The notes: generated by a model from the letters alone, not told the origin. 64,000 bases of DNA from Pseudomonadota bacterium (GCA_039026855.1 JBCCLL010000007.1:780-64779), one strand, 5' to 3'; positions 6,943 to 61,219 are shown, numbered from the stretch's first letter. A program made the numbers and translations.

Positions 6943-7902
6943 ATGACACAAAACACCTACGACACCGGCCGCCTGAACCTGCCATTTGTGGGCATCTCCA
7001 CCTTTGGAAAACGCCCCTATATCGAGGATTGGGACGCGTTGCAGGCGGATGTCGCCATCCTCGGCGCGCCGTTTGACGCTGGCACGCAATGGCGCTCGGG
7101 CGCGCGATTTGGGCCGCGGGCGGTGCGCGAGGCCTCGACGCTCTTTAGCTTCGGTCACGCCGGCGCCTATGACCACGAAGACGATGCCACCTACCTGCCC
7201 GAGGATGTGCGCATCGTCGACATGGGCGACGCCGATATCATCCACACCGACACCGATGGCAGCCACGCCAATATCGAGGCAGGCGTGCGCGCAGCCCTTG
7301 CCGCAGGGGCATTGCCGGTGACCATCGGTGGCGACCACTCGGTCAACATCCCCTGCATCCGCGCCTTTGCGGGCCAGGGCGACTTCCACATCCTGCAGAT
7401 CGACGCGCATCTCGATTTTGTCGACGAACGCCACGGCGTGCGCCATGGCCACGGCAACCCGATGCGCCGCGCCGCTGAACAGCCGTTTGTCACCGGATTG
7501 ACCCAGGTCGGCATCCGCAATGTCAGCTCTACCGCGCGCGAAGGCTACGCCGATGCGCGGCGCATGGGCGCCGACATCCTGTCAGTGCGCCAGGCCCGCG
7601 CGCTGGGGCCGGCAGGTGTGATCAACCGCATTCCCGCCGGCGCGCGGCTCTATGTGACGATCGACATCGACGCCTTCTGCCCCTCCATCGCGCCGGGCAC
7701 AGGCACGCCCAGCCATGGCGGGTTTCTCTATTACGACGTGCTCGAGATGCTGCAAGCTGCGGCCAAACGCCACGACATTGTGGGCATCGATTTGGTCGAG
7801 GTCGCCCCCGACTACGACCCCACTGGCAGCACTGCGATCCTGGCGGCACAGGTCCTTATGAACCTGCTGGGCTTTATCTTTCACGCGCGCGCGGGTGGAT
7901 AA
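6943..7902 (+). CDS. speB: Agmatinase (ureohydrolase)
   Basis: GARFGPRAVREAS, GGDHS, DAHLD, DIDAFCPSIAPGTGTP metal-binding motifs. Confidence 0.88.
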   Translation: MTQNTYDTGRLNLPFVGISTFGKRPYIEDWDALQADVAILGAPFDAGTQWRSGARFGPRAVREASTLFSFGHAGAYDHEDDATYLPEDVRIVDMGDADIIHTDTDGSHANIEAGVRAALAAGALPVTIGGDHSVNIPCIRAFAGQGDFHILQIDAHLDFVDERHGVRHGHGNPMRRAAEQPFVTGLTQVGIRNVSSTAREGYADARRMGADILSVRQARALGPAGVINRIPAGARLYVTIDIDAFCPSIAPGTGTPSHGGFLYYDVLEMLQAAAKRHDIVGIDLVEVAPDYDPTGSTAILAAQVLMNLLGFIFHARAGG

Positions 7903-51652: not shown

Positions 51653-52335
51653 TGCAGCAGCTCGACCTCGACACGCAAAGCTTGCGCGACGTGAACGCAA
51701 CCTTGCAGGCGCAGGACGCGCAGACCAATCAGACCGCGTGGGAGATCGTCAATCCCAAGGGCGCGCATGCCATCGCCTGCGGCCTCGACAGTGCCATTGC
51801 CGTCACCGTCCAAGGCTCCACTGGCTACTATTGCGGCGGCATGAACAAACAGGCCGAAATCCGCGTCAACGGATCAGCAGGGCCTGGCGTGTGCGAAAAC
51901 ATGATGTCGGGCAAGGTCGTGATCGACGGCGACGCCAGCCAATATGCCGGGGCGACGGGCCATGGCGGGCTTTTGGTGATCAAGGGCAACGCCTCAAGCC
52001 GCTGCGGCATCTCGATGAAGGGCATCGACATCGTCGTGCACGGCAGTGTCGGCCACATGAGCGCGTTTATGGCGCAATCTGGCACCCTAGTGGTGTGCGG
52101 CGATGCTGGCGACGCGCTGGGGGACAGCATCTATGAGGCACGGCTTTTTGTGCGCGGCGCCGTGGCGTCACTCGGCGCCGATTGCATCGAAAAAGAGATG
52201 CGGCCTGAGCATCTCGAACTACTGGGCGATCTACTGGCCGCCGCCGAAAGCGACGCCGACCCGACCGAATTTCGCCGCTACGGTTCCGCCCGCGCGCTTT
52301 ACCATTTCGACATCGACAACGCAGGGGCCTATTGA
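51652..52335 (+). CDS. glxC: GXGXG-domain protein; N-methylglutamate synthase subunit B (MgsB/GlxC)
   Basis: NPKGAHAIACG, GYYCGGMN, ENMMSG, RCGISMKG, GHMSAFMAQ; TGATG coupling. Confidence 0.9.
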   Translation: MQQLDLDTQSLRDVNATLQAQDAQTNQTAWEIVNPKGAHAIACGLDSAIAVTVQGSTGYYCGGMNKQAEIRVNGSAGPGVCENMMSGKVVIDGDASQYAGATGHGGLLVIKGNASSRCGISMKGIDIVVHGSVGHMSAFMAQSGTLVVCGDAGDALGDSIYEARLFVRGAVASLGADCIEKEMRPEHLELLGDLLAAAESDADPTEFRRYGSARALYHFDIDNAGAY

Positions 52336-53663
52336 TGGATCACACGCCCAAGACACACCCCGTCAAGCCGTGGACGTTTGACGACTACACCACCTCATAC
52401 ATCCGGCGCGCAGCGGCCACCGGCATCTATGATATCCGCGGCGGCGGGTCGAAACGGCGCGTGCCGCATTTCGACGATCTGCTGTTTCTGGGCGCGTCCA
52501 TGTCGCGCTACCCGCTCGAAGGCTACCGCGAGGCCTGCGGGACCAACGTAACCCTTGGCACACGGTTTGCCCAAAACCCCATCCATCTGGACATCCCCAT
52601 CACCATCGCGGGCATGAGCTTTGGCGCGCTCTCGGGTCAGGCCAAAGAGGCGCTGGGCCGCGGCGCCTCTGAGGCGGGCACCTCGACCACCACGGGCGAC
52701 GGCGGGATGACAGACGAAGAGCGTGGCCATTCCACCAAGCTGGTCTACCAGTACCTACCGTCGCGCTATGGCATGAACCCCGACGATCTGCGCCGTGCCG
52801 ACGCGATCGAGATTGTCGTCGGCCAAGGTGCCAAGCCCGGCGGCGGCGGCATGCTGCTGGGCCAAAAGATCAACGACCGCGTGGCCGAGATGCGCAACCT
52901 GCCTGCGGGCATCGACCAACGCTCCGCCTGCCGCCACCCCGACTGGACCGGCCCGGATGATCTTGAGATCAAGATCCTCGAACTGCGCGAAATCACCGGC
53001 TGGAAGGTGCCGATTTTTATCAAGGTCGGCGGCGCCCGGCCCTATTTCGACACCACGCTGGCGGTCAAGGCAGGCGCTGACGTGGTTGTGCTGGACGGGA
53101 TGCAGGGTGGGACGGCGGCCACGCAGGACGTGTTCATCGAGCATGTGGGCCAGCCCACGCTGGCCTGCATTCGCCCCGCCGTGCAGGCGTTGCAAGATCT
53201 CGACATGCACCGCGAGGTGCAGCTTGTGATCTCGGGCGGTGTGCGCACCGGCGCCGACGTGGCCAAGGCGCTGGCGCTGGGCGCGGATGCGGTGTCCATC
53301 GGCAGTGCCGCCCTCATTGCGCTGGGGGACAACGACCCCGCACTGGAAGAGGAATACCGCAAGCTGGGCACAACCGCGGGCGCGTTCGACGACTGGCACG
53401 AGGGCAACGACCCCGCGGGCATCACCACCCAGGACCCGGTGCTCGCAGCCCGGCTCGACCCTGTGGCCGCGGGGCGCAGGCTGGCCAATTACCTCAAGGT
53501 GATGACACTGGAGGCGCAGACCATCGCCCGCGCCAATGGCAAAAGCCACGTGCTCAACCTCGAACACGAAGACCTGTGCGCGCTGACAATCGAAGCTGCC
53601 GCGATGGCAGGGGTGCCGCTGGCCGGCACCGACTGGATCCCTGGCAAAAAGGATGCCTTTTGA
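52335..53663 (+). CDS. glxD: FMN-binding glutamate synthase family; N-methylglutamate synthase subunit C (MgsC/GlxD)
   Basis: GMSFGALS, TTGDGG, GQGAKPGGGG, SACRHPD, DGMQGGT, SGG.RTGADVAKA. Confidence 0.92.
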   Translation: MDHTPKTHPVKPWTFDDYTTSYIRRAAATGIYDIRGGGSKRRVPHFDDLLFLGASMSRYPLEGYREACGTNVTLGTRFAQNPIHLDIPITIAGMSFGALSGQAKEALGRGASEAGTSTTTGDGGMTDEERGHSTKLVYQYLPSRYGMNPDDLRRADAIEIVVGQGAKPGGGGMLLGQKINDRVAEMRNLPAGIDQRSACRHPDWTGPDDLEIKILELREITGWKVPIFIKVGGARPYFDTTLAVKAGADVVVLDGMQGGTAATQDVFIEHVGQPTLACIRPAVQALQDLDMHREVQLVISGGVRTGADVAKALALGADAVSIGSAALIALGDNDPALEEEYRKLGTTAGAFDDWHEGNDPAGITTQDPVLAARLDPVAAGRRLANYLKVMTLEAQTIARANGKSHVLNLEHEDLCALTIEAAAMAGVPLAGTDWIPGKKDAF

Positions 53664-54964
53664 TGACCGACCTCGCCACCTGGGCCGCCGAGAGTGGCGT
53701 CAAATTCTTCCTATGCAACTTCACCGATCTTTTTGGCGTGCAACGGGCAAAGCTTGTGCCCACAGAGGCGATAGCCAGCGCTCAATCGGGCGGTGCGGGG
53801 TTTGCAGGCTTTGCCGCATGGCTCGACATGACCCCCGCCCACCCCGACATGCTGGTGATGCCCGACGTGGACAGCGTGATCCAACTGCCCTGGAAACCGG
53901 AACTGGCCTGGGTCGCGGGTGATCCGTGGATGGACGGCAAACCAGTCGCACAGGCCCCGCGCGTGGTGCTGAAAACCCTGGTCCAAGCAGCCGCCGACCG
54001 CGGCTACATGTTGCAAACCGGGGTGGAGCCGGAATTTCACCTGATCAGCGCCGACGGCACCGACATCTCGGACACGCGCGACACTCAGGAAAAGCCGTGT
54101 TACGACCAATCCGCGCTGATGCGCCGGTATGAGGTCATCGCCGAGATCTGTTCGACCATGATCGCGCTGGGCTGGGGACCGTACCAGAACGATCACGAGG
54201 ATGCCAACGGCCAGTTCGAGATCAACTGGAATTTCGGCCCCTGCCTGAACACCGCCGACCAGCACGCGTTTTTCAAGTTCATGGTCAAGGAGATCGCGGA
54301 AAAGCACGGGCTGCGCGCGACCTTCATGCCCAAACCTTTTTCGCATCTGACCGGCAATGGCTGCCACGTGCACCATTCGCTGTGGACCGCGGACGGGTCC
54401 ACTTGCGTCTTTGACGGCGAGGACGAGATGGGCCTGTCGGACCAGGCATACCACTTTCTGGGTGGGCTGATGGCGCACGGTCAGGCGCTCTGCGCGATCA
54501 CCAACCCGACCGTGAACAGCTACAAACGTATCAACGCGCCCGCGACCCTGTCGGGGGCCACGTGGTCACCGCAATCGGTCACCTATGGCGGCAACAACCG
54601 CACCCACATGGTGCGCATCCCCGATGGCGGGCGGCTGGAGTTGCGTCTGGCCGACGGTGCGGCAAACCCGTACCTGCTGCAAGCCGTGCTGCTGGCCGCG
54701 GGTCTGGATGGGCTGGAGCGCGCGCTTGATCCCGGCAAGCGGCTCGACATCGACATGTACACCGAAGGGTCCAAGGCGCGCGGCGCGAAAAAGCTGCCGC
54801 TCAACATGCTCGACGCCCTGCGGGCCTATGAAAAGGACAAACCGCTCAGCACCGCCATGGGGGCCGAGTTTTCCACAGCCTACCTCAACCTGCGCATGCG
54901 CGAATGGACGCAATATTGCCAGTACCTGACCCAATGGGAACGCGACACAACGCTCGACTGCTAG
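53663..54964 (+). CDS. glnT: Type III glutamine synthetase-like gamma-glutamylmethylamide synthetase (GmaS)
   Basis: RAKLVP, GAGFAGFA, GVEPEF, KPCYDQ.ALMR, DHEDANGQFE, ATFMPKP, NSYKR, NNRTHMVR; context with mgsABC. Confidence 0.9.
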   Translation: MTDLATWAAESGVKFFLCNFTDLFGVQRAKLVPTEAIASAQSGGAGFAGFAAWLDMTPAHPDMLVMPDVDSVIQLPWKPELAWVAGDPWMDGKPVAQAPRVVLKTLVQAAADRGYMLQTGVEPEFHLISADGTDISDTRDTQEKPCYDQSALMRRYEVIAEICSTMIALGWGPYQNDHEDANGQFEINWNFGPCLNTADQHAFFKFMVKEIAEKHGLRATFMPKPFSHLTGNGCHVHHSLWTADGSTCVFDGEDEMGLSDQAYHFLGGLMAHGQALCAITNPTVNSYKRINAPATLSGATWSPQSVTYGGNNRTHMVRIPDGGRLELRLADGAANPYLLQAVLLAAGLDGLERALDPGKRLDIDMYTEGSKARGAKKLPLNMLDALRAYEKDKPLSTAMGAEFSTAYLNLRMREWTQYCQYLTQWERDTTLDC

Positions 54965-55051: not shown

Positions 55052-55480
55052 CTATGACCCGCCACCCGCCTGCGCGTGGCTGTCATGCAGAAAACTGCGC
55101 AGATCAACCACGTCTTTGGCGTCCAGCGAGACATAGATAAAGCCCATGTTGGTCCGCTCCGTCACCATCTCACCAGGATAGGGCAGATAGCTTAGCTCGC
55201 GCGAGCCAAAGGACGGCGACGCCGTGCCAACCTGCCACTCGGTGGTCAGTTGCACGTCCACGAGCTTCATCGACGCGCCCCCGTCCGGCGCAGGACGCTC
55301 CAGCGGCACATTTGCCAGGCGCAGATAGGCCATCTTGTCCTTGGCCGCGACAAAGCCGTCGATGAACTGCGTGGCCAGCACCTGCAACTCCGCCGCAGCA
55401 TCTTCGGGTTTGAGGTGGCTGTGCAGGTGGTCGTGGCTGTGGTTATGGCCGATATGGCCACCGACGATGTCATGGGGCAT
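55052..55480 (-). CDS. Hypothetical protein with His-rich N-terminus (142 aa), last gene of the guanidine operon
   Basis: MPHDIVGGHIGHNHSHDHLHSH...; GGAGG RBS; start overlaps the CMD gene end. Confidence 0.82.
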   Translation of the reverse strand: MPHDIVGGHIGHNHSHDHLHSHLKPEDAAAELQVLATQFIDGFVAAKDKMAYLRLANVPLERPAPDGGASMKLVDVQLTTEWQVGTASPSFGSRELSYLPYPGEMVTERTNMGFIYVSLDAKDVVDLRSFLHDSHAQAGGGS

Positions 55481-55874
55481 CCGCGCCCTCCTCCTTTTCT
55501 TGGGCAAAGACCTCAAGTGCGGCGTTCAACCCGTTGATGGCCGCAGGAAACCCGCCGTAAAGCGCCATCTGCCAGATCACTTCGCCGATCTCCTGCTGGC
55601 TCAGCCCCGCCTTGCGCCCACCTGCGATATTGACCTTGAGCTGCGCCGCCGTCTGCCCGCCAAGCGCGGTCAACGCCGCGATGGTGGCAAGATAACGGTC
55701 GCGGAGCGGCAAGCCGGGCCGCGCGTATTGCCGCCCATAGGCAAAGTCGACAACCCCCTCGGCCATGCCAGGCACCAGATGACCGTAACGCGACTCCAAC
55801 GTGGTCTCCATGCCGGGGTTGAGCGTTTCGGCAAGGGCGCGCCCCGCCTCAAGGGTGCTTGGTGTGTCGCTCAT
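55470..55874 (-). CDS. Carboxymuconolactone decarboxylase (CMD/AhpD-fold) family protein
   Basis: FAYG..YARPGL..RDR.L.TIAALTALG, AGLS..EI.EVI.Q..LYGGFPAA; no CxxC. Confidence 0.88.
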   Translation of the reverse strand: MSDTPSTLEAGRALAETLNPGMETTLESRYGHLVPGMAEGVVDFAYGRQYARPGLPLRDRYLATIAALTALGGQTAAQLKVNIAGGRKAGLSQQEIGEVIWQMALYGGFPAAINGLNAALEVFAQEKEEGADAP

Positions 55875-55877
55875 AAC

Positions 55878-57119
55878 TCAACGCTCCGTCCTGCCGTGCC
55901 AGCGCTTCCCTTCAAACGCGCCGTGCGGGATCGTCACCGGCTTGTCGATATGGGCCGTGTGCTTGCCCAGATTGCCTGACGCCACAAGGCTGCCCAGCAC
56001 ATCCACAATCACCCGAGTGCCCATCAGCGCCGTGATGTCCGAGGTGTCGTAGGGCGGCGAGACCTCGACCAGTTCCATGCCGCAAATCCCTTCTGCCGCG
56101 ACCTTGGAGGCCAGCGCCAGCGCCTCACGCGGCAGGAACCCGCCCGGCTCCGGCCAGCCGGTGCCGGGGACAAAGCCGCAGTCGATGCTGTCGATGTCAA
56201 AAGACATATAGACCATATCGACCCCGTCCCACGCCATCTCCAGCGCCATCTCAGCGGTCTTGTCGATGCCCATCTTCTCCATGTCGGACATGGTGATGAT
56301 GTTCGTCTCGCGCTCGCGGGCCACTTTCACGGCCTCGCGCGGGACCTGCCAGCCGCCGATGCCCACCTGCACCAGGTTCTTGGCGGGCACGTTGGGCAGG
56401 TTGGTGGAATGAAACCACGGCGTGGTGTGCATCCGCTCGTCCAGGTCTTTCTCCTGAATGTCGGCGTGGCGGTCGAAATGCACAATCCCGATCTTCTTCG
56501 ACGTGCATTCGGCAATGCCGCGCACGCAGGGAAAGCCGATGGAGTGATCGCCCCCGATCATGATCGGCAGGCTGCCGCTTGAAAACACATGGCTCACCGC
56601 GCGGCTGATCTGGTCAAAGCTCTTTTCGATATTGGCTGGGATCGTAAACACATCGCCCGCGTCGCACAGCGTCATCTGTTCACGCAGATCGACGCCCATC
56701 TCGTAATTATACGGCGTATAAAGCGCGCTGATCTTGCGCACGCCCTGCGGTCCAAACCGGGTGCCGGGACGGTATGTGGTGCCCCCGTCAAACGGGATCC
56801 CCAGAACAGTGGCATCATAGTCTTTCACCTCCGTGACATCTTCGGTGTAGGGCGCTTTGAGAAAGGTGTTGATGCCCGCGTAATGCGGCAACTCTCCGCG
56901 CGCGAAGGTTGGGATGGACTTGTCTTCGATGCTGTCGGCGCCGGTCAGCCCCATGCGCAGGGCCCAGCGGCGTTCTTCGTCCCAGCGGCCTTCGGGGATG
57001 TCGGCTTCGGCTTTCATCGACTTCCAGCCTTGCAGCTTGGTCAGATCCGGGTGGTGCTGGCGCCGGTCGCGAGGGGCGCGCAAGTCGCGCGGGTGATGGC
57101 TGCGTGAGCGGTCGGGCAT
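55878..57119 (-). CDS. gdmH: Guanidine hydrolase (GdmH/guanidinase-type ureohydrolase)
   Basis: RGELPHYAGINTF, GTTYRPGTRFGP, PYNYEMGVDLRE, GGDHS, HFDRHAD, DLDERMHTTPWFH, GIGGWQ, DIDSID.GFVPGTGWPEPGG (Trp where agmatinases have Thr); downstream of a guanidine-I riboswitch. Confidence 0.85.
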   Translation of the reverse strand: MPDRSRSHHPRDLRAPRDRRQHHPDLTKLQGWKSMKAEADIPEGRWDEERRWALRMGLTGADSIEDKSIPTFARGELPHYAGINTFLKAPYTEDVTEVKDYDATVLGIPFDGGTTYRPGTRFGPQGVRKISALYTPYNYEMGVDLREQMTLCDAGDVFTIPANIEKSFDQISRAVSHVFSSGSLPIMIGGDHSIGFPCVRGIAECTSKKIGIVHFDRHADIQEKDLDERMHTTPWFHSTNLPNVPAKNLVQVGIGGWQVPREAVKVARERETNIITMSDMEKMGIDKTAEMALEMAWDGVDMVYMSFDIDSIDCGFVPGTGWPEPGGFLPREALALASKVAAEGICGMELVEVSPPYDTSDITALMGTRVIVDVLGSLVASGNLGKHTAHIDKPVTIPHGAFEGKRWHGRTER

Positions 57120-57137
57120 GATGCGTCTCCGTTGGGG

Positions 57138-57956
57138 TTAGCCCGCCGCGCCCCGGGCGTGACCCGGGGCCTCTGCGGGCGAGAGGTCCCGGGTCAAGCC
57201 CGGGACAGGATGGTCTGCAAGGATGTTCTGAAACGGGATGCCCCCGTCACGGGCATCAAAATCATAGGTGATCGTGGCGCCGATCAGGTCAGGATCGCTC
57301 GGGTCCCAGCGCGGCTTGTCAAACACCAGCACCCGGTCGCCCAGTTTGAACCCTTCTTCCAGATCATGGGTGACCATAAACACGGTCATGCCGGTTTCCG
57401 CCCGCAGGTCCATCAGAAAATCATGCATCGACAGCCGCGTACCGGGATCAAGCGCGCCAAAGGGTTCATCGAGCAGCAGAATGCGCGGCTTGGCCGCGAG
57501 CGCCTGCGCGATGGCCAGCCGCTGCTGCATGCCACCCGACAGCGCCGCGGGATAGGCTTGCGCCATGTGATCCAGACCACAGCGCGCCAGCACCTCCATG
57601 GCGCGGTCACGCGCGGCCTGTTTGCCGGCACCAAAAAACCGGCCCCAGGGCAGGCGAAAGCTTTCTCCCGCGATCACATTGTCGATCACCGTCATATGCG
57701 GAAAGACCGAGTATTTCTGAAACACCACACCGCGGTCCAACCCCGGCTCGCGCGCCGGGTCCGCACCAGCGATGCGAATTTCGCCCCGCGTCGGTGTCTC
57801 TTGCGCCAACAAAAGCCGCAGGAATGTGGACTTGCCACAGCCAGACGCGCCCACAATCGAGATGAATTCGCCTTCATCCACGCTCACCGAAACGCGTTCC
57901 AGGATCGGGCGCGCGCCGTAAGACTGAAAGATGTTGGTCGCGGTGACAAAGCTCAC
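57138..57956 (-). CDS. ABC transporter ATPase (TauB/SsuB/NrtD-like), guanidine uptake
   Basis: GASGCGKST, LSGGMQQR, LLLDEPFGALD, VTHD; GTGA coupling to the permease. Confidence 0.93.
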   Translation of the reverse strand: MSFVTATNIFQSYGARPILERVSVSVDEGEFISIVGASGCGKSTFLRLLLAQETPTRGEIRIAGADPAREPGLDRGVVFQKYSVFPHMTVIDNVIAGESFRLPWGRFFGAGKQAARDRAMEVLARCGLDHMAQAYPAALSGGMQQRLAIAQALAAKPRILLLDEPFGALDPGTRLSMHDFLMDLRAETGMTVFMVTHDLEEGFKLGDRVLVFDKPRWDPSDPDLIGATITYDFDARDGGIPFQNILADHPVPGLTRDLSPAEAPGHARGAAG

Positions 57957-58765
57957 AGCGTCGCCTCCGTCCACGGGAAAAACCGCCGCGCAACCCAGCG
58001 CAAGGACAGGTCAATCACAAAGGCCAGCACCGTGATCCAGATCACATAGGTCAGGATCACATCCATCGCCAAAAACCGCCGCACCAGAAAGATGCGGTAG
58101 CCCAGGCCCTGTTCCGACGCGATCGCCTCCGCCGCGATCAGGAACAGCCAGGCAGGTCCCAGTGACAGCCGCAGCGCCTGGATCAACCGCGGCATCATCT
58201 GCGGCAGTGCCACCCGCAGCGCGATGACAGCCGTCGACGCGCCCAGCGTTTGCGCCTTCACGATCATCTCGCGCGGGATCTCCAGCACCCGGGTGGACAG
58301 ATCGCGGATCAGGAACGGCAGGATGCCCACGATGATCAGCACCACTTTGGACAGCTCGCCCAGGCCAAAGACGATGAACAGGATCGGCAGCACCGCCAAC
58401 GGCGGGATCATCGAGATAACCGCGACAAAGCCCGCCAGCGTGGCCCGCACATGCGGCAAAAGCCCAATCAGCACGCCAAAGATCACCGCCAGCGCCGCCG
58501 AAATGCCCACACCCAGGCTCAACCGGATCAGGCTGGCGGCAGTGTCGTGCCAGAACAGGATCTTGTCCGACCGCCGGTCCGGCTCGGTGAGCAGACGCAC
58601 CGCGGTGTCCATGATCTTGCCCGGCGCAGGCATCAGCTTGTCGGACGGGTTGACCGCCAGCCGGGCTTGCGACCCCATCGCATAGGCCACAAACAACAGG
58701 ACAAAAGGCAGGGCAATCAGCACCGCGCGCAGCGCGTTGCCGGGATGCCGGTTGATCAGACGCAT
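57953..58765 (-). CDS. ABC transporter permease (TauC/SsuC-like), guanidine uptake
   Basis: IPPLAVLPILFIVFGLGE, KAQTLGAS, AWLFLIAAEAI...GLGY. Confidence 0.93.
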   Translation of the reverse strand: MRLINRHPGNALRAVLIALPFVLLFVAYAMGSQARLAVNPSDKLMPAPGKIMDTAVRLLTEPDRRSDKILFWHDTAASLIRLSLGVGISAALAVIFGVLIGLLPHVRATLAGFVAVISMIPPLAVLPILFIVFGLGELSKVVLIIVGILPFLIRDLSTRVLEIPREMIVKAQTLGASTAVIALRVALPQMMPRLIQALRLSLGPAWLFLIAAEAIASEQGLGYRIFLVRRFLAMDVILTYVIWITVLAFVIDLSLRWVARRFFPWTEATL

Positions 58766-58786
58766 CGGCCCTGCCCCCGGTGGCCG

Positions 58787-59845
58787 CTACAGCGCGCCGT
58801 CCGCCGCCATCTGCATATAGGTGGTGTCAAACCGGAACTGCACGTTGCCTGCATCCCCCGTGGTGGACCCGTCCGGGTAGGCGATGCCCACAAAATCCGC
58901 CGACGGCGCCCCTTCGCCCAGAATGCCCTTGTCAAAGAGGAACTCGGCCACGCTGACCATCGTCTCGGGCAATTCCGCACTGGCAGTAAAGGCCACCGCA
59001 TCCGCCGGGTCATAGAACATTTCGGTCGAGGCAAGCTGCGCCTTGTAGCCCGCCAGATCAGTGCCCGAGGCTTCGGCCATGGCCGTCAGCACCGCTTCGT
59101 CGCCCGCGGCCATCAGGCCCATGACCTCGTACCACGCGCCCACCAGCGCTTTGCCGAAATCGGGGTTGGCTTCGAGCGTTTCGGTGTTCACCACCATCAG
59201 GTCGATGATCTCGCCGGGGATATCGGAGCTGTCAAAAAGCTTGGTGGCGGTGGGGTCCTCAAGGATCGTGGACACGAGCGGGTTCCACGTCACCACCGCT
59301 TCGACATCGGATGTAGCAAAGGCTGCGATCATGTCGGCATCCGACGTGTTGATCACCGATGCCAGGTCCGCCTCGCGCAGCCCCACACTGTCGAGCGCAC
59401 GCGCCAGCAGATAATGCGACACTGACAGTTCCACCAGATTGACCGGCTTGCCCGCAAGTGACGCCAGATCACCGTCCCCTTTGACGATGACCGCGTCATT
59501 GCCGTTGGAAAAGTCGCCCACAATCAGCGCCGTGGTGTCGACACCACCGCCCGCTGGGATCGATAGGGTGTCCATATTGGTGGCCGACACACCGTCAAAA
59601 GCGCCGGCGGTGTACTGATTGATCGATTCCACATAGTCGTTGATCTGCACAATCTCGACATCGATGCCGTATTTGTCGGCCCATTTGTCCATGATGCCGC
59701 TCTCTTCCAGATAGCCCCAGGGCATCCAGCCGACATAGATGGACCAAGCCACGCGAAACTCGGTTTTTTCTTGTGCGATGGCGGCGCCTGCGGTGCCGAT
59801 CAAAAGAGCAGCCGCACCTATGACGACGTGACGAAGAACTTGCAT
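58787..59845 (-). CDS. ABC substrate-binding protein ('urea carboxylase-associated' family), probable guanidine binding
   Basis: Signal peptide; AWSIYVGWMPW, DYVESINQY, TNMD, DFSNGNDA, SVSHYLL, TWNP, PGEIID; first gene after the riboswitch. Confidence 0.9.
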   Translation of the reverse strand: MQVLRHVVIGAAALLIGTAGAAIAQEKTEFRVAWSIYVGWMPWGYLEESGIMDKWADKYGIDVEIVQINDYVESINQYTAGAFDGVSATNMDTLSIPAGGGVDTTALIVGDFSNGNDAVIVKGDGDLASLAGKPVNLVELSVSHYLLARALDSVGLREADLASVINTSDADMIAAFATSDVEAVVTWNPLVSTILEDPTATKLFDSSDIPGEIIDLMVVNTETLEANPDFGKALVGAWYEVMGLMAAGDEAVLTAMAEASGTDLAGYKAQLASTEMFYDPADAVAFTASAELPETMVSVAEFLFDKGILGEGAPSADFVGIAYPDGSTTGDAGNVQFRFDTTYMQMAADGAL

Positions 59846-59935
59846 GTGGATCATCCCTTGCAACGTCCCGCCCGGATCAGAGACATGGCGAGCCGTGGCG
59901 GAACAGGAGAAAACGGCTGTATGTCAGATGCAGTG

Positions 59936-60046
59936 TTCTCCCGGGATTTTGCCCCGCCGTGTACCGGGTGGAATTTGCCACGCCGACGACCTCTCTCGGA
60001 CCAGACCCTGCGCGCTGCTGCCGCTGGCGGAACCCTAGATGCCCTG
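59936..60046 (-). ncRNA. Guanidine-I riboswitch (ykkC-yxkD motif)
   Basis: Minus strand: TCTAGGGTTCCG...GTCTGGTCCGAGAGA...TACACGGCGGGGCAAAATCCCGGGAGA; all hallmark blocks in order, ~90 nt upstream of the SBP start. Confidence 0.92.
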
Positions 60047-60119
60047 CACACGTACGGTCGCGCGGCCGGTCGGCGCATTGCAAGATTGCAGCACGGGAAC
60101 GGGTGCAAAGGCGGCGATC

Positions 60120-60265: not shown

Positions 60266-61219
60266 TTAGCTTAACCGCCCCCGTTGTTTCATCGGGGCCA
60301 CGCCAAAGGTCGCCCGATAGGTGCGCGAAAAATGCCCCACATTCTCGTATCCGCAGGCCATCGCGACATCCGTCACCGACATTTCCGTCTGCACCAGCAG
60401 GTGGCGCGCACGGTGCAGCCGCAATTCGACAAAGTAACGTTTCGGCGTTGTGTTGAGGTATTTGCCAAAGAGCCGTTCCAGTTGCCGCACAGAAATCCCC
60501 AGATCTGCTGCGATGACAGAGGGCGAGATAGGCGCGTCCAGATTGTCTTGCATGTTCTTAATCGCCACTGCGAGATGCTTGTTGCGCATGGCGTGGCGCG
60601 ACTGCAGCGACGCTTTCTGCGGCGCCGATGCCTCACGCACCGCGTTGTAGACAAGCTGGTCGGCCACCTCGTTTGACAAATCCTGCCCGTGGTCCTGCGC
60701 GATCAGGTGCAGCATCAGATCCGCCGCTGCTGTGCCGCCGGACGCGGTCATGTGCCGGTCGTCGGCGACAAAGACATTGCGCACCAGATCGACCTGCGGA
60801 AACTGCTCGGCAAAGCTGTCGTGGTATTCCCAGTGGATCGCCGCCGGTCGCGCGTCTAAAAAGCCGCCCTGGGCCAGGATCCAGGCCCCCGAGCACAACG
60901 CGCCGATGTGCGTTTTGGCGTGCCGGTCGATCCGCCGCAGCGCCATGCGCAGCACCCGGGTGTCATGCGTGCGCATGTTGAGCCCGGACAGCACAAATAG
61001 GTAATCGCAGTGCGGCATCGCATCAAAGCGGTGTTCCGTCAGCACTTTGGTGCCGTTGGAACTGCACGCCGTGCGGCCGTCCAGCGATGCGAGCGACCAA
61101 GAATATAGCGGCTTGCCTGCCACCAGATTTGCGATGCGCAACGGGTCCACGGCACAGGCAAAGGCGACATGGGTAAAATCTTCGACCAGAGCGAAGGTGA
61201 AATGTGTTGCGTCAGGCAT
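60266..61219 (-). CDS. GlxA/GbdR-family regulator (DJ-1 domain plus AraC HTH)
   Basis: DPLRIAN, GALCSGAWILA..G.LD, IHWE, TASGGTAA.D, SVRQLERLF, VAMACGY...HFSR.YR..FG..P. Confidence 0.93.
   Translation of the reverse strand: MPDATHFTFALVEDFTHVAFACAVDPLRIANLVAGKPLYSWSLASLDGRTACSSNGTKVLTEHRFDAMPHCDYLFVLSGLNMRTHDTRVLRMALRRIDRHAKTHIGALCSGAWILAQGGFLDARPAAIHWEYHDSFAEQFPQVDLVRNVFVADDRHMTASGGTAAADLMLHLIAQDHGQDLSNEVADQLVYNAVREASAPQKASLQSRHAMRNKHLAVAIKNMQDNLDAPISPSVIAADLGISVRQLERLFGKYLNTTPKRYFVELRLHRARHLLVQTEMSVTDVAMACGYENVGHFSRTYRATFGVAPMKQRGRLS

Follow-up and report, generated by a model that had tools for sequence, protein, structure and literature searches.

Introduction

How does nickel reach a guanidine hydrolase in bacteria that lack HypA/HypB-type accessory proteins? 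The question is raised by an operon at positions 55,052–60,046 of a 64,000-nucleotide (nt) stretch of DNA from a Pseudomonadota bacterium (GCA_039026855.1, JBCCLL010000007.1:780–64779), referred to here in its full length as the window. The operon combines a guanidine-I riboswitch with genes for an ATP-binding cassette (ABC) importer, a GdmH-type guanidine hydrolase, a protein of the CMD family and a small His-rich protein. In Synechocystis, GdmH is Ni-dependent and needs the accessory proteins GhaA and GhaB (PMC12186494, PMC12704784), and HypA/HypB-like genes are found in metformin hydrolase clusters as well (PMC11271267). The comammox guanidinase, from Nitrospira inopinata, is accompanied by no recognisable chaperone, and its nickel loading was stated to be unclear (PMC11410670).

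An earlier note on the window had read the operon as a set of closely spaced or overlapping elements on one strand, had found no HypA/HypB-type or guanidine carboxylase genes there, and had proposed an alphaproteobacterial guanidine assimilation pathway in which the CMD and His-rich proteins would make up an undescribed maturation module. Rfam, Pfam and NCBIfam searches and the coordinates of the genes confirmed the layout, and the assignment to guanidine assimilation was right: a riboswitch, an importer and a GdmH orthologue are all in place. The module itself had to be divided. The His-rich protein accompanies gdmH throughout the Alphaproteobacteria and is the better candidate for a nickel-handling factor, whereas the CMD gene is not part of the core of the system.

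The hydrolase

When the hydrolase was compared with all sequences in the PDB, the best matches were GdmH of Synechocystis (7ESR/7OI1; 554 bits) and the guanidinase of N. inopinata (9FEK; 539 bits). The next match, proclavaminate amidinohydrolase, reached 178 bits, and agmatinases scored about 110–130 bits. Grouping with the agmatinases was one of the outcomes that the earlier note had named as refuting its reading, and these scores place the enzyme with the guanidinases instead. The metal-ligand motifs GGDHS, DRHxD and DxDxxD are intact and identical to those of 7ESR in the alignment, and residues D191, H192, D216, H218, D220, D308, D310 and D313 are invariant among 18 alphaproteobacterial GdmH sequences. 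By sequence comparison, the hydrolase is thus an orthologue of GdmH and not an agmatinase. This orthology, taken together with the riboswitch context, suggests that the alphaproteobacterial GdmH hydrolyzes free guanidine and does so in a nickel-dependent manner.

Ahead of the part that aligns to the solved structures, GdmH carries an N-terminal extension of 34 residues with the motifs RSHHP and HHPDL. The extension is found in frame in about 40 Rhodobacterales loci, where it reads RSHHP...RR.HHPDLTKLQGWK, and it takes the form R(R)HHP(D/N)F..GWK in 83 of 84 loci from other Alphaproteobacteria; H22, H23, P24, G31 and W32 are invariant. Since the extension is conserved in frame, the 413-residue reading frame is real. 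The N-terminal 55 residues had no sequence match in the PDB, and the AlphaFold2 (AF2) model of full-length GdmH, made from a shallow alignment, was poor (mean predicted local distance difference test score (pLDDT) of 56, and about 35 in the extension), so that the position of the HHP motif in this model is not informative.

Four more arginase-family paralogues, 32–35% identical to GdmH, are encoded in the same genome: one in the window itself (6970–7872, plus strand), two in tandem on contig C30, and one on contig C77.

A His-rich protein accompanies gdmH

The last gene of the operon encodes the His-rich protein, referred to below as the partner. Its start at the ATG at position 55480 is supported by the closest homologues, 119 out of 120 of which begin with MPH. 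A Shine–Dalgarno sequence, AAGGAGGAG, lies 5' of this ATG, which overlaps the stop codon of the CMD gene. The partner family contains 1392 clusters at 90% identity and 129 at 50% identity, and wherever a source gives its members a name, that name is “hypothetical protein”. Literature searches returned no description of the partner protein.

The distribution of the two genes was determined in 401 genomes that sample the order Rhodobacterales evenly. Thirty-nine of these genomes contain gdmH, and 38 of them also the partner; no genome that lacks gdmH has it. The exception among the 39 is an assembly of 340 contigs, where the gdmH match covers only residues 1–292. The partner gene lies directly downstream of gdmH in this order, separated from it by 17–272 nt; in the window genome the distance is 428 nt, with the CMD gene inside the gap.

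Two more distant clades were included as well. The first comprises Hyphomicrobiales, Geminicoccaceae, Acetobacteraceae, Ancylobacter, Sinorhizobium/Ensifer, Bosea and Aurantimonas (80 loci kept of 198 found), and the second Stellaceae, Azospirillum and others (11 loci). The partner follows gdmH in all 87 of these loci that have upstream DNA, and the other four lie at the start of a contig. This arrangement is kept at considerable sequence distance from the window, the partner being 25–45% identical and GdmH 72–81%. A separate sample of 401 genomes from the whole phylum contained six with gdmH, all of them Alphaproteobacteria. Three of the six belong to the order sample; the three outside it were checked, and all have the partner. 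In genomic terms, the His-rich protein is an obligate companion of gdmH in Alphaproteobacteria, and it represents an undescribed protein family.

The search for longer forms of the partner returned four singleton fusions, to a CobW GTPase, an NMT1 substrate-binding protein (SBP), an MFS transporter and an unknown protein. These are likely to be assembly or gene-call chimeras at repeats of His codons, and a second search with a region from one of the fusion proteins gave no further fusions. The first of these, a metagenomic protein (P0250, 360 residues, on a single contig of 1619 nt), consists of a COG0523/CobW-type GTPase, a His-rich linker and a complete partner core, and occurs only once. 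It is likely a chimera formed at His-codon repeats, because the other “fusions” join unrelated partners; if real, it would link the partner family to the G3E metallochaperone GTPases. Apparent GdmH–partner fusions among the representatives at 50% identity (P0149, P0188, P0237 and P0249) look frameshifted and were rejected.

Three loci stand out in other ways. On a 2.18-Mb contig of a Hyphomicrobiales metagenome-assembled genome (MAG), only residues 280–363 of gdmH were detected upstream of the partner (L121:9693–10402), reflecting either decay of the gene or frameshifts in the assembly. Two further gdmH–partner loci (L057 and L131) come from MAGs labelled Actinomycetota and Anaerolineae, respectively. 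Their GdmH sequences are 70–81% and 80% identical to that of the window, which makes them as close or closer to it than those of most alphaproteobacterial loci; mis-binning or recent transfer would explain this.

Anatomy of the partner

The partner consists of a disordered, His-rich head, which begins with MPHD and has eight His within residues 1–22, and a folded core of about 115 residues. An AF2 model based on an alignment of 68 sequences had a mean pLDDT of 88, with residues 1–24 disordered and values above 94 in the core. In this model, the core is made up of two helices, five strands and a final helix (an α-α-β5-α topology). We were unable to relate the protein to any known family. It had no Pfam or NCBIfam match at E 0.01, no sequence match in the PDB at E 10, and none to the Pfam and NCBIfam models of the UreE, HypA, HypB, CooJ, CooT and SlyD families. 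Nor did the 68 family members share a match to any Pfam or NCBIfam model at E 1. A Foldseek search of the PDB with the model gave a best E of 0.12, with nothing matching, and VIA-align against 48,161 chains scored highest with Tudor/SH3-like barrels, at a Z of 4.4 that is under the noise level quoted for such searches; no chaperone was listed. Leads from a protein atlas (DUF1007 and HupE_UreJ_2), all scoring below 0.9, were set aside as probably driven by His content.

The two parts of the protein are conserved in different ways. In the core, the conserved positions are hydrophobic, Gly, Pro or, in one case, Asp (F39, D48, L53, P59, L73, G85, P89, P100, P102 and Y116). What is kept in the His-rich segment is the composition, whereas sequence and position vary. 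At least five His fall within the first 45 residues in all 120 close relatives. Among the 91 distant loci, the His tail is N-terminal in 71 and C-terminal in four, while the rest have three or four His (in one locus, a single His). MH occurs in the stretch where the protein begins in 67 of these 91 loci. That His tails recur at one end of the protein or the other, although the sequence is very poorly conserved, suggests selection for metal binding. Taken together, the pattern of tail and core fits the capture of a metal by a flexible tail and the docking of another protein by the core. The Met-His style of the head recalls the MHE nickel site at the N terminus of HypA, and also HypB with its His-rich stretches.

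Absence of HypA/HypB and the nickel context

The assembly to which the window belongs consists of 92 contigs and is 89.9% complete. In this genome we found no HypA (PF01155), no HypB above the cut-off (TIGR00073; the best match is UreG) and no urea or guanidine carboxylase above the cut-off. Five relatives with the operon have closed or nearly closed genomes. Four of them lack both HypA and HypB, and the fifth encodes the two proteins about 50 kb from gdmH. With the HypA and HypB sequences of this fifth relative as queries, no HypA was found in 137 related loci (1.7 Mb), and the weak HypB matches were UreG. The absence that the earlier note had reported for the window is borne out for the assembled part of the window genome, and that of HypA/HypB extends to four of the five closed relatives.

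Contig C52 of the window genome carries ureC-ureE-ureF-ureG, so that the urea produced can be used, and two NicO-family transporters are encoded in the genome. Nickel permease genes of the HupE/UreJ type lie inside the operon itself in nine loci (Table 1), with Pfam E values of 1e-45 to 1e-56. They are found directly after the partner gene in Ensifer, Sinorhizobium, Azospirillum, an Acetobacteraceae MAG and the locus L138, and before gdmH or the SBP gene in Ancylobacter, a Xanthobacteraceae MAG and Bosea. In four loci (L045, L048, L050 and L110), a urease cluster (ureC-ureE-ureF-ureG) converges on the gdmH–partner operon, with 0.1–1.9 kb between the end of ureG and that of the partner gene.

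The Ancylobacter and Xanthobacteraceae loci have the gene order hupE-gdmH-partner and no ABC importer. A database protein in which the partner core is joined to half of a HupE/UreJ protein (P0196) is probably a frameshift or gene-call artefact of a locus of the in-operon HupE/UreJ kind (L126).

The CMD gene

The protein encoded between gdmH and the partner gene resembles the PcaC-type decarboxylases 2AF7 and 4G9Q, with which it shares the PF02627 domain and to which it scores 75–86 bits. It differs from them in several respects: it falls under the PcaC equivalog cut-off (TIGR02425; 53.5 versus 155.7 bits), it has Asn in the sequence QLKVNI where both structures have His, there are no pca genes nearby, and its genes are found in urease, gdmH and LysR contexts. 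The Asn is present in all 80 orthologues (69–89% identity) recovered in a scan for this gene. The translation contains no cysteine, and thus no AhpD-type CxxC motif.

The 80 orthologous loci fall into several contexts. Eleven have the order gdmH-CMD-partner and belong to Cognatiyoonia, a Roseobacter MAG and related MAGs. In 22, the order is ureC-ureE-ureF-CMD-ureG, and the CMD gene abuts ureF and overlaps ureG (Jannaschia, Dinoroseobacter, Tropicimonas, Actibacterium, Pontivivens, HTCC2150, Roseitalea, Phyllobacteriaceae and others). About 17 copies lie behind a LysR gene, and the remaining ones have mixed surroundings. The gene seems to occur once per genome: that of the window genome lies in the gdmH operon, its ureF and ureG adjoining each other with no CMD gene between them, and in five other genomes with gdmH and CMD the sole copy is likewise in the gdmH operon. 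A quick, weakly resolved tree (127 columns, four starred branches) mixed the copies from gdmH and urease contexts and kept those from the LysR context apart. The position between ureF and ureG in 22 of the 80 loci makes a link with nickel enzymes possible, as an optional gene. On this synteny, the CMD subfamily is associated with the two nickel hydrolases of the route from guanidine through urea to ammonia, and is dispensable for gdmH. No account of a CMD gene within urease clusters came up in literature searches.

In three loci of the Dinoroseobacter type (L144, L145 and L153; at about 7.2–8.6 kb, minus strand), an arginase-family gene 32–34% identical to GdmH lies about 1 kb past ureG, on the strand opposite to ureF-CMD-ureG.

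In the original proposal, HypA/HypB are replaced by a maturation module of two parts, the CMD protein and the His-rich protein. The translational coupling of the two genes in the window would agree with this, as would the sole CMD copies in the gdmH operons of the window genome and the five others, the tight packing of the orthologues between ureF and ureG, and the loss of the PcaC-type His from all members of the subfamily. In the wider sample, however, the CMD gene is present between gdmH and the partner in only one of the 38 sampled Rhodobacterales operons, and hence missing from 37, and in none of the 91 distant loci. A CMD orthologue is missing from the whole genome in four of the five closed genomes with gdmH and the partner, and many orthologues have a LysR gene or otherwise unrelated surroundings next to them. 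We therefore regard a two-part module as rather unlikely. Half of the proposal survives, in the form of a conserved and undescribed gdmH partner (38 of 39 genomes; 87 of 87 loci). The other half does not: given its occurrence in one of 38 operons, the gdmH context of only 11 of its 80 loci, and its absence from four of five closed genomes, the CMD gene is a lineage-specific and optional insert in the gdmH operon, and not a core component.

Operon layout, riboswitch and importer

The features of the operon are listed in Table 1. An Rfam covariance-model search of the ykkC-yxkD type placed RF00442 above its gathering score (72.3 versus 63 bits; E 6.5e-11) and over the full length of the model (positions 1–107 of 107), in agreement with the riboswitch assigned in the earlier note. 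The 3' end of the aptamer is about 70–90 nt upstream of the SBP start. A guanidine-I riboswitch was present upstream of the SBP gene, with the same operon layout, in all seven related loci tested, which represent three clades. In this riboswitch family, the binding of guanidine switches expression on.

Table 1. Features of the guanidine operon in the window, and related loci with a nickel permease gene inside the operon.
Feature	Position	Strand	Support
Guanidine-I (ykkC) riboswitch aptamer	59936–60049	-	Rfam RF00442, 72.3 bits
Candidate expression-platform hairpin	59906–59941	-	Minimum free energy fold of 59835–59975, and sequence
Periplasmic SBP, GimA-like	58787–59863	-	TIGR03427, 530 bits versus cut-off 334; NMT1-type Pfam matches
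ABC permease	57953–58765	-	PF00528 (BPD_transp_1), 66.5 bits; syntenic in related loci
ABC ATPase	57138–57974	-	PF00005 (ABC_tran), 116.8 bits; syntenic in related loci
GdmH-type guanidine hydrolase, 413 amino acids	55878–57119	-	PF00491, 258 bits; arginase fold
CMD (PcaC-like) family protein	55470–55874	-	PF02627, 59.2 bits versus 23
His-rich GdmH partner, 142 amino acids	55052–55480	-	No Pfam, NCBIfam or PDB sequence match
HupE/UreJ genes inside the operon (other loci)	L082, L096, L099, L115, L117, L119, L126, L127, L138		

The minimum free energy fold of the region contains a candidate hairpin whose 5' arm, GGAGAA, shares bases with the 3' end of the aptamer and whose 3' arm, UUUUCUCC, is followed by UGUU. 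The hairpin is weak: its fold has a z of −0.83 relative to shuffled sequences, which is not significant, and its U-tract is weak. We can only infer a role as an expression platform for it. A terminator scan gave no convincing candidate either after the aptamer or after the last gene of the operon.

Six minus-strand genes, for the SBP, permease, ATPase, hydrolase, CMD and His-rich proteins, follow 3' of the riboswitch and are tightly packed or overlapping. There are gaps of 21 nt between the SBP and permease genes, 18 nt between the ATPase and hydrolase genes and 3 nt between the hydrolase and CMD genes, while the permease and ATPase genes overlap by 22 nt and the CMD and His-rich genes by 11 nt. 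The operon ends with the His-rich gene, towards which a glutamine-synthetase-family gene converges from the plus strand. The true start of the SBP is probably the ATG at position 59845. With a TIGR03427 binding protein, a permease and an ATPase in one operon, the importer is of the GimABC type. The SBP gene is kept upstream of gdmH in most related loci, and when all open reading frames from 80 loci were clustered, the three transporter genes were the only conserved extra neighbours of the gdmH–partner pair.

Proposed role of the partner and alternatives

We propose that the operon is a guanidine-inducible nitrogen-scavenging system. Free guanidine would bind the riboswitch and turn expression on, the ABC importer with its TIGR03427-type binding protein would take up guanidine, and the GdmH-type, presumably Ni-dependent hydrolase would convert it to urea and ammonium, after which the urease encoded on contig C52 would complete the breakdown. 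For the His-rich protein, we favor, with moderate confidence, a role in maturation, as a nickel-binding factor. Nickel would be captured by its variable His-rich tail, and its conserved core would dock on GdmH and so deliver the metal, possibly together with the HHP motif in the N-terminal extension of GdmH itself. The partner would then do in Alphaproteobacteria what GhaA and GhaB do in cyanobacteria. Any role of the CMD protein would probably be one shared by the two nickel hydrolases, or in the handling of urea or ammonia. A bolder version of this proposal is that the partner founds a GTPase-independent class of nickel metallochaperones, in which the metal passes from the disordered tail, by way of docking of the novel-fold core, to the HHP motif and on to the active site, and that the Asn-type CMD protein is a shared auxiliary of urease and guanidinase that relocates between their clusters. 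We offer this version tentatively, as a possibility somewhat short of an even chance.

Several observations weigh against a role for the partner in nickel delivery. The nickel dependence of the alphaproteobacterial GdmH itself rests on homology. A dedicated helper is not strictly required for some activity, since the N. inopinata guanidinase was partly loaded with nickel in E. coli without a chaperone (PMC11410670). The fold of the partner matched no known metallochaperone, Foldseek and VIA-align giving weak matches only, and its core has no conserved His or Cys and thus no conserved metal ligand. The His tails are uneven, with four His or fewer in 16 of the 91 distant loci. No recurrent fusion came out of the search for longer forms, nor was there any other sign of physical interaction, and no RNA sequencing run that contained the locus was found. 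Finally, UreE, UreF and UreG are encoded in the genome and could supply nickel.

Some of the same observations could be accommodated if the partner were a structural or regulatory subunit of GdmH, which would stabilize the hexamer, gate the active-site tunnel or couple activity to metal or nitrogen status, with the tail being secondary and no nickel delivered. Strict one-to-one adjacency, frequent translational coupling with gdmH and a conserved core without metal ligands are what such a subunit might show. The lineage-specific extension of GdmH co-occurs with the partner, and in N. inopinata an N-terminal extension stabilizes the quaternary structure; the solved guanidinases, however, are homo-hexamers without such a subunit (PMC11410670). 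A subunit would also leave aside the recurrence of His tails at either end of a protein with very low sequence conservation, and the HupE/UreJ genes inside the operon in nine loci. We consider this explanation improbable.

A nickel store or buffer, which would hold or detoxify nickel upon induction without a specific hand-over to GdmH, is less probable again. The disordered His-rich head is reminiscent of storage proteins such as Hpn, and the variation of the tails in length and composition would suit a buffer. A generic buffer, however, would need no conserved folded core of about 100 residues that is found only beside gdmH (38 of 38 and 87 of 87), and the partner occurs in no genome without gdmH among the 401 of the order sample.

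Comparably unlikely is that GdmH acquires its metal spontaneously or from the urease accessory proteins (UreD/E/F/G), with the partner having a function unrelated to metal. The partial nickel loading of the comammox enzyme without helpers (PMC11410670) is in line with this, as are the presence of UreE, UreF and UreG in the window genome, the urease clusters that abut the operon in four loci, and a CMD subfamily that moves between urease and gdmH clusters. Neither the strict pairing of partner and gdmH nor the His-rich tails would be explained. Moreover, where urease accessory proteins have been studied, their specificity is for the complex of the urease apoprotein.

Lastly, it is most improbable that the hydrolase is an agmatinase or guanidino-acid hydrolase, as its best NCBIfam models, which are agmatinase ones but both under their cut-offs, might suggest, because its 554 and 539 bits to two characterized guanidinases compare with 130–178 bits to agmatinase, guanidinobutyrase and proclavaminate amidinohydrolase, and because its gene is preceded by a riboswitch specific for guanidine and an importer of the guanidine type.

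Flanking genes

Genes for a glutamate-synthase-domain protein and a glutamine-synthetase-family protein (52332–54964, plus strand) converge on the end of the operon; by appearance they belong to a methylamine pathway of the N-methylglutamate type. In close relatives with available flanks this adjacency is not kept, so that synteny gives no support to a methylguanidine island. In four loci of Acetobacteraceae and Xanthobacteraceae without the ABC importer (L066, L067, L080 and L108; about 6.3–8.6 kb), a glutamine-synthetase-family gene closely precedes gdmH in the same orientation, and its product is 38–40% identical to that of the window. Directly upstream of the riboswitch in the window, and on the same strand as the operon, is a gene for an AraC-family regulator with a DJ-1/PfpI domain (60266–61219, minus strand).

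Comparison with known systems and implications

In Synechocystis sp. PCC 6803, the corresponding locus consists of a riboswitch, gdmH (sll1077), ghaA and ghaB (sll1078/1079) and gimABC (sll1080–1082). The window has in common with it the riboswitch class, an orthologous hydrolase (554 bits), the type of ABC importer, and import and hydrolysis of guanidine for nitrogen (PMC12704784, PMC12186494). The differences lie in the accessory functions and in the gene order. No HypA/HypB-like genes are found in the operon or the genome, and in their place stands a single small His-rich protein, from a family that is unrelated and has no name, without a GTPase. In addition, the transporter genes come first and the hydrolase after them, GdmH has the HHP-containing extension, and the CMD gene is inserted. 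The operon of N. inopinata (riboswitch, APC permease and guanidinase) likewise has an orthologous enzyme (9FEK; 539 bits), riboswitch control and no HypA/HypB, but it uses an APC permease and has no recognized accessory gene (PMC11410670), whereas the operon in the window has a dedicated candidate.

Like GhaA/GhaB and MetA/MetB, which are of the HypA/HypB type, the partner is encoded beside an arginase-fold hydrolase that is, or in this case presumably is, nickel-dependent. Unlike them, it has no zinc-finger cysteines and no GTPase partner, and no similarity of sequence or fold to them was found. In being small and soluble, with a variable His tail, and in being encoded with a nickel hydrolase, the partner resembles UreE, CooJ, SlyD and the Hpn-like proteins. 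It differs from them in having no match to UreE_N, UreE_C or any other Pfam model, a different predicted topology, and a tail that may be at either end.

Guanidine is now recognized as a widespread nitrogen source, and the way in which the comammox enzyme is loaded with nickel has been described as unclear (PMC11410670). The partner, which was seen in every alphaproteobacterial gdmH genome or locus that could be checked, from marine bacteria of the Roseobacter group to rhizobia, Azospirillum and Ancylobacter, is a concrete candidate for this function. The CMD protein, in whichever of the urease and guanidinase clusters it is encoded, is a second unstudied protein that may be relevant to urease biology in marine and soil Alphaproteobacteria. 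If the proposed role of the partner is true, it would add a new family and a new fold to the few nickel chaperones, and it could raise the activity of heterologously produced guanidinases, which would be relevant for engineered ethylene- or guanidine-producing strains.

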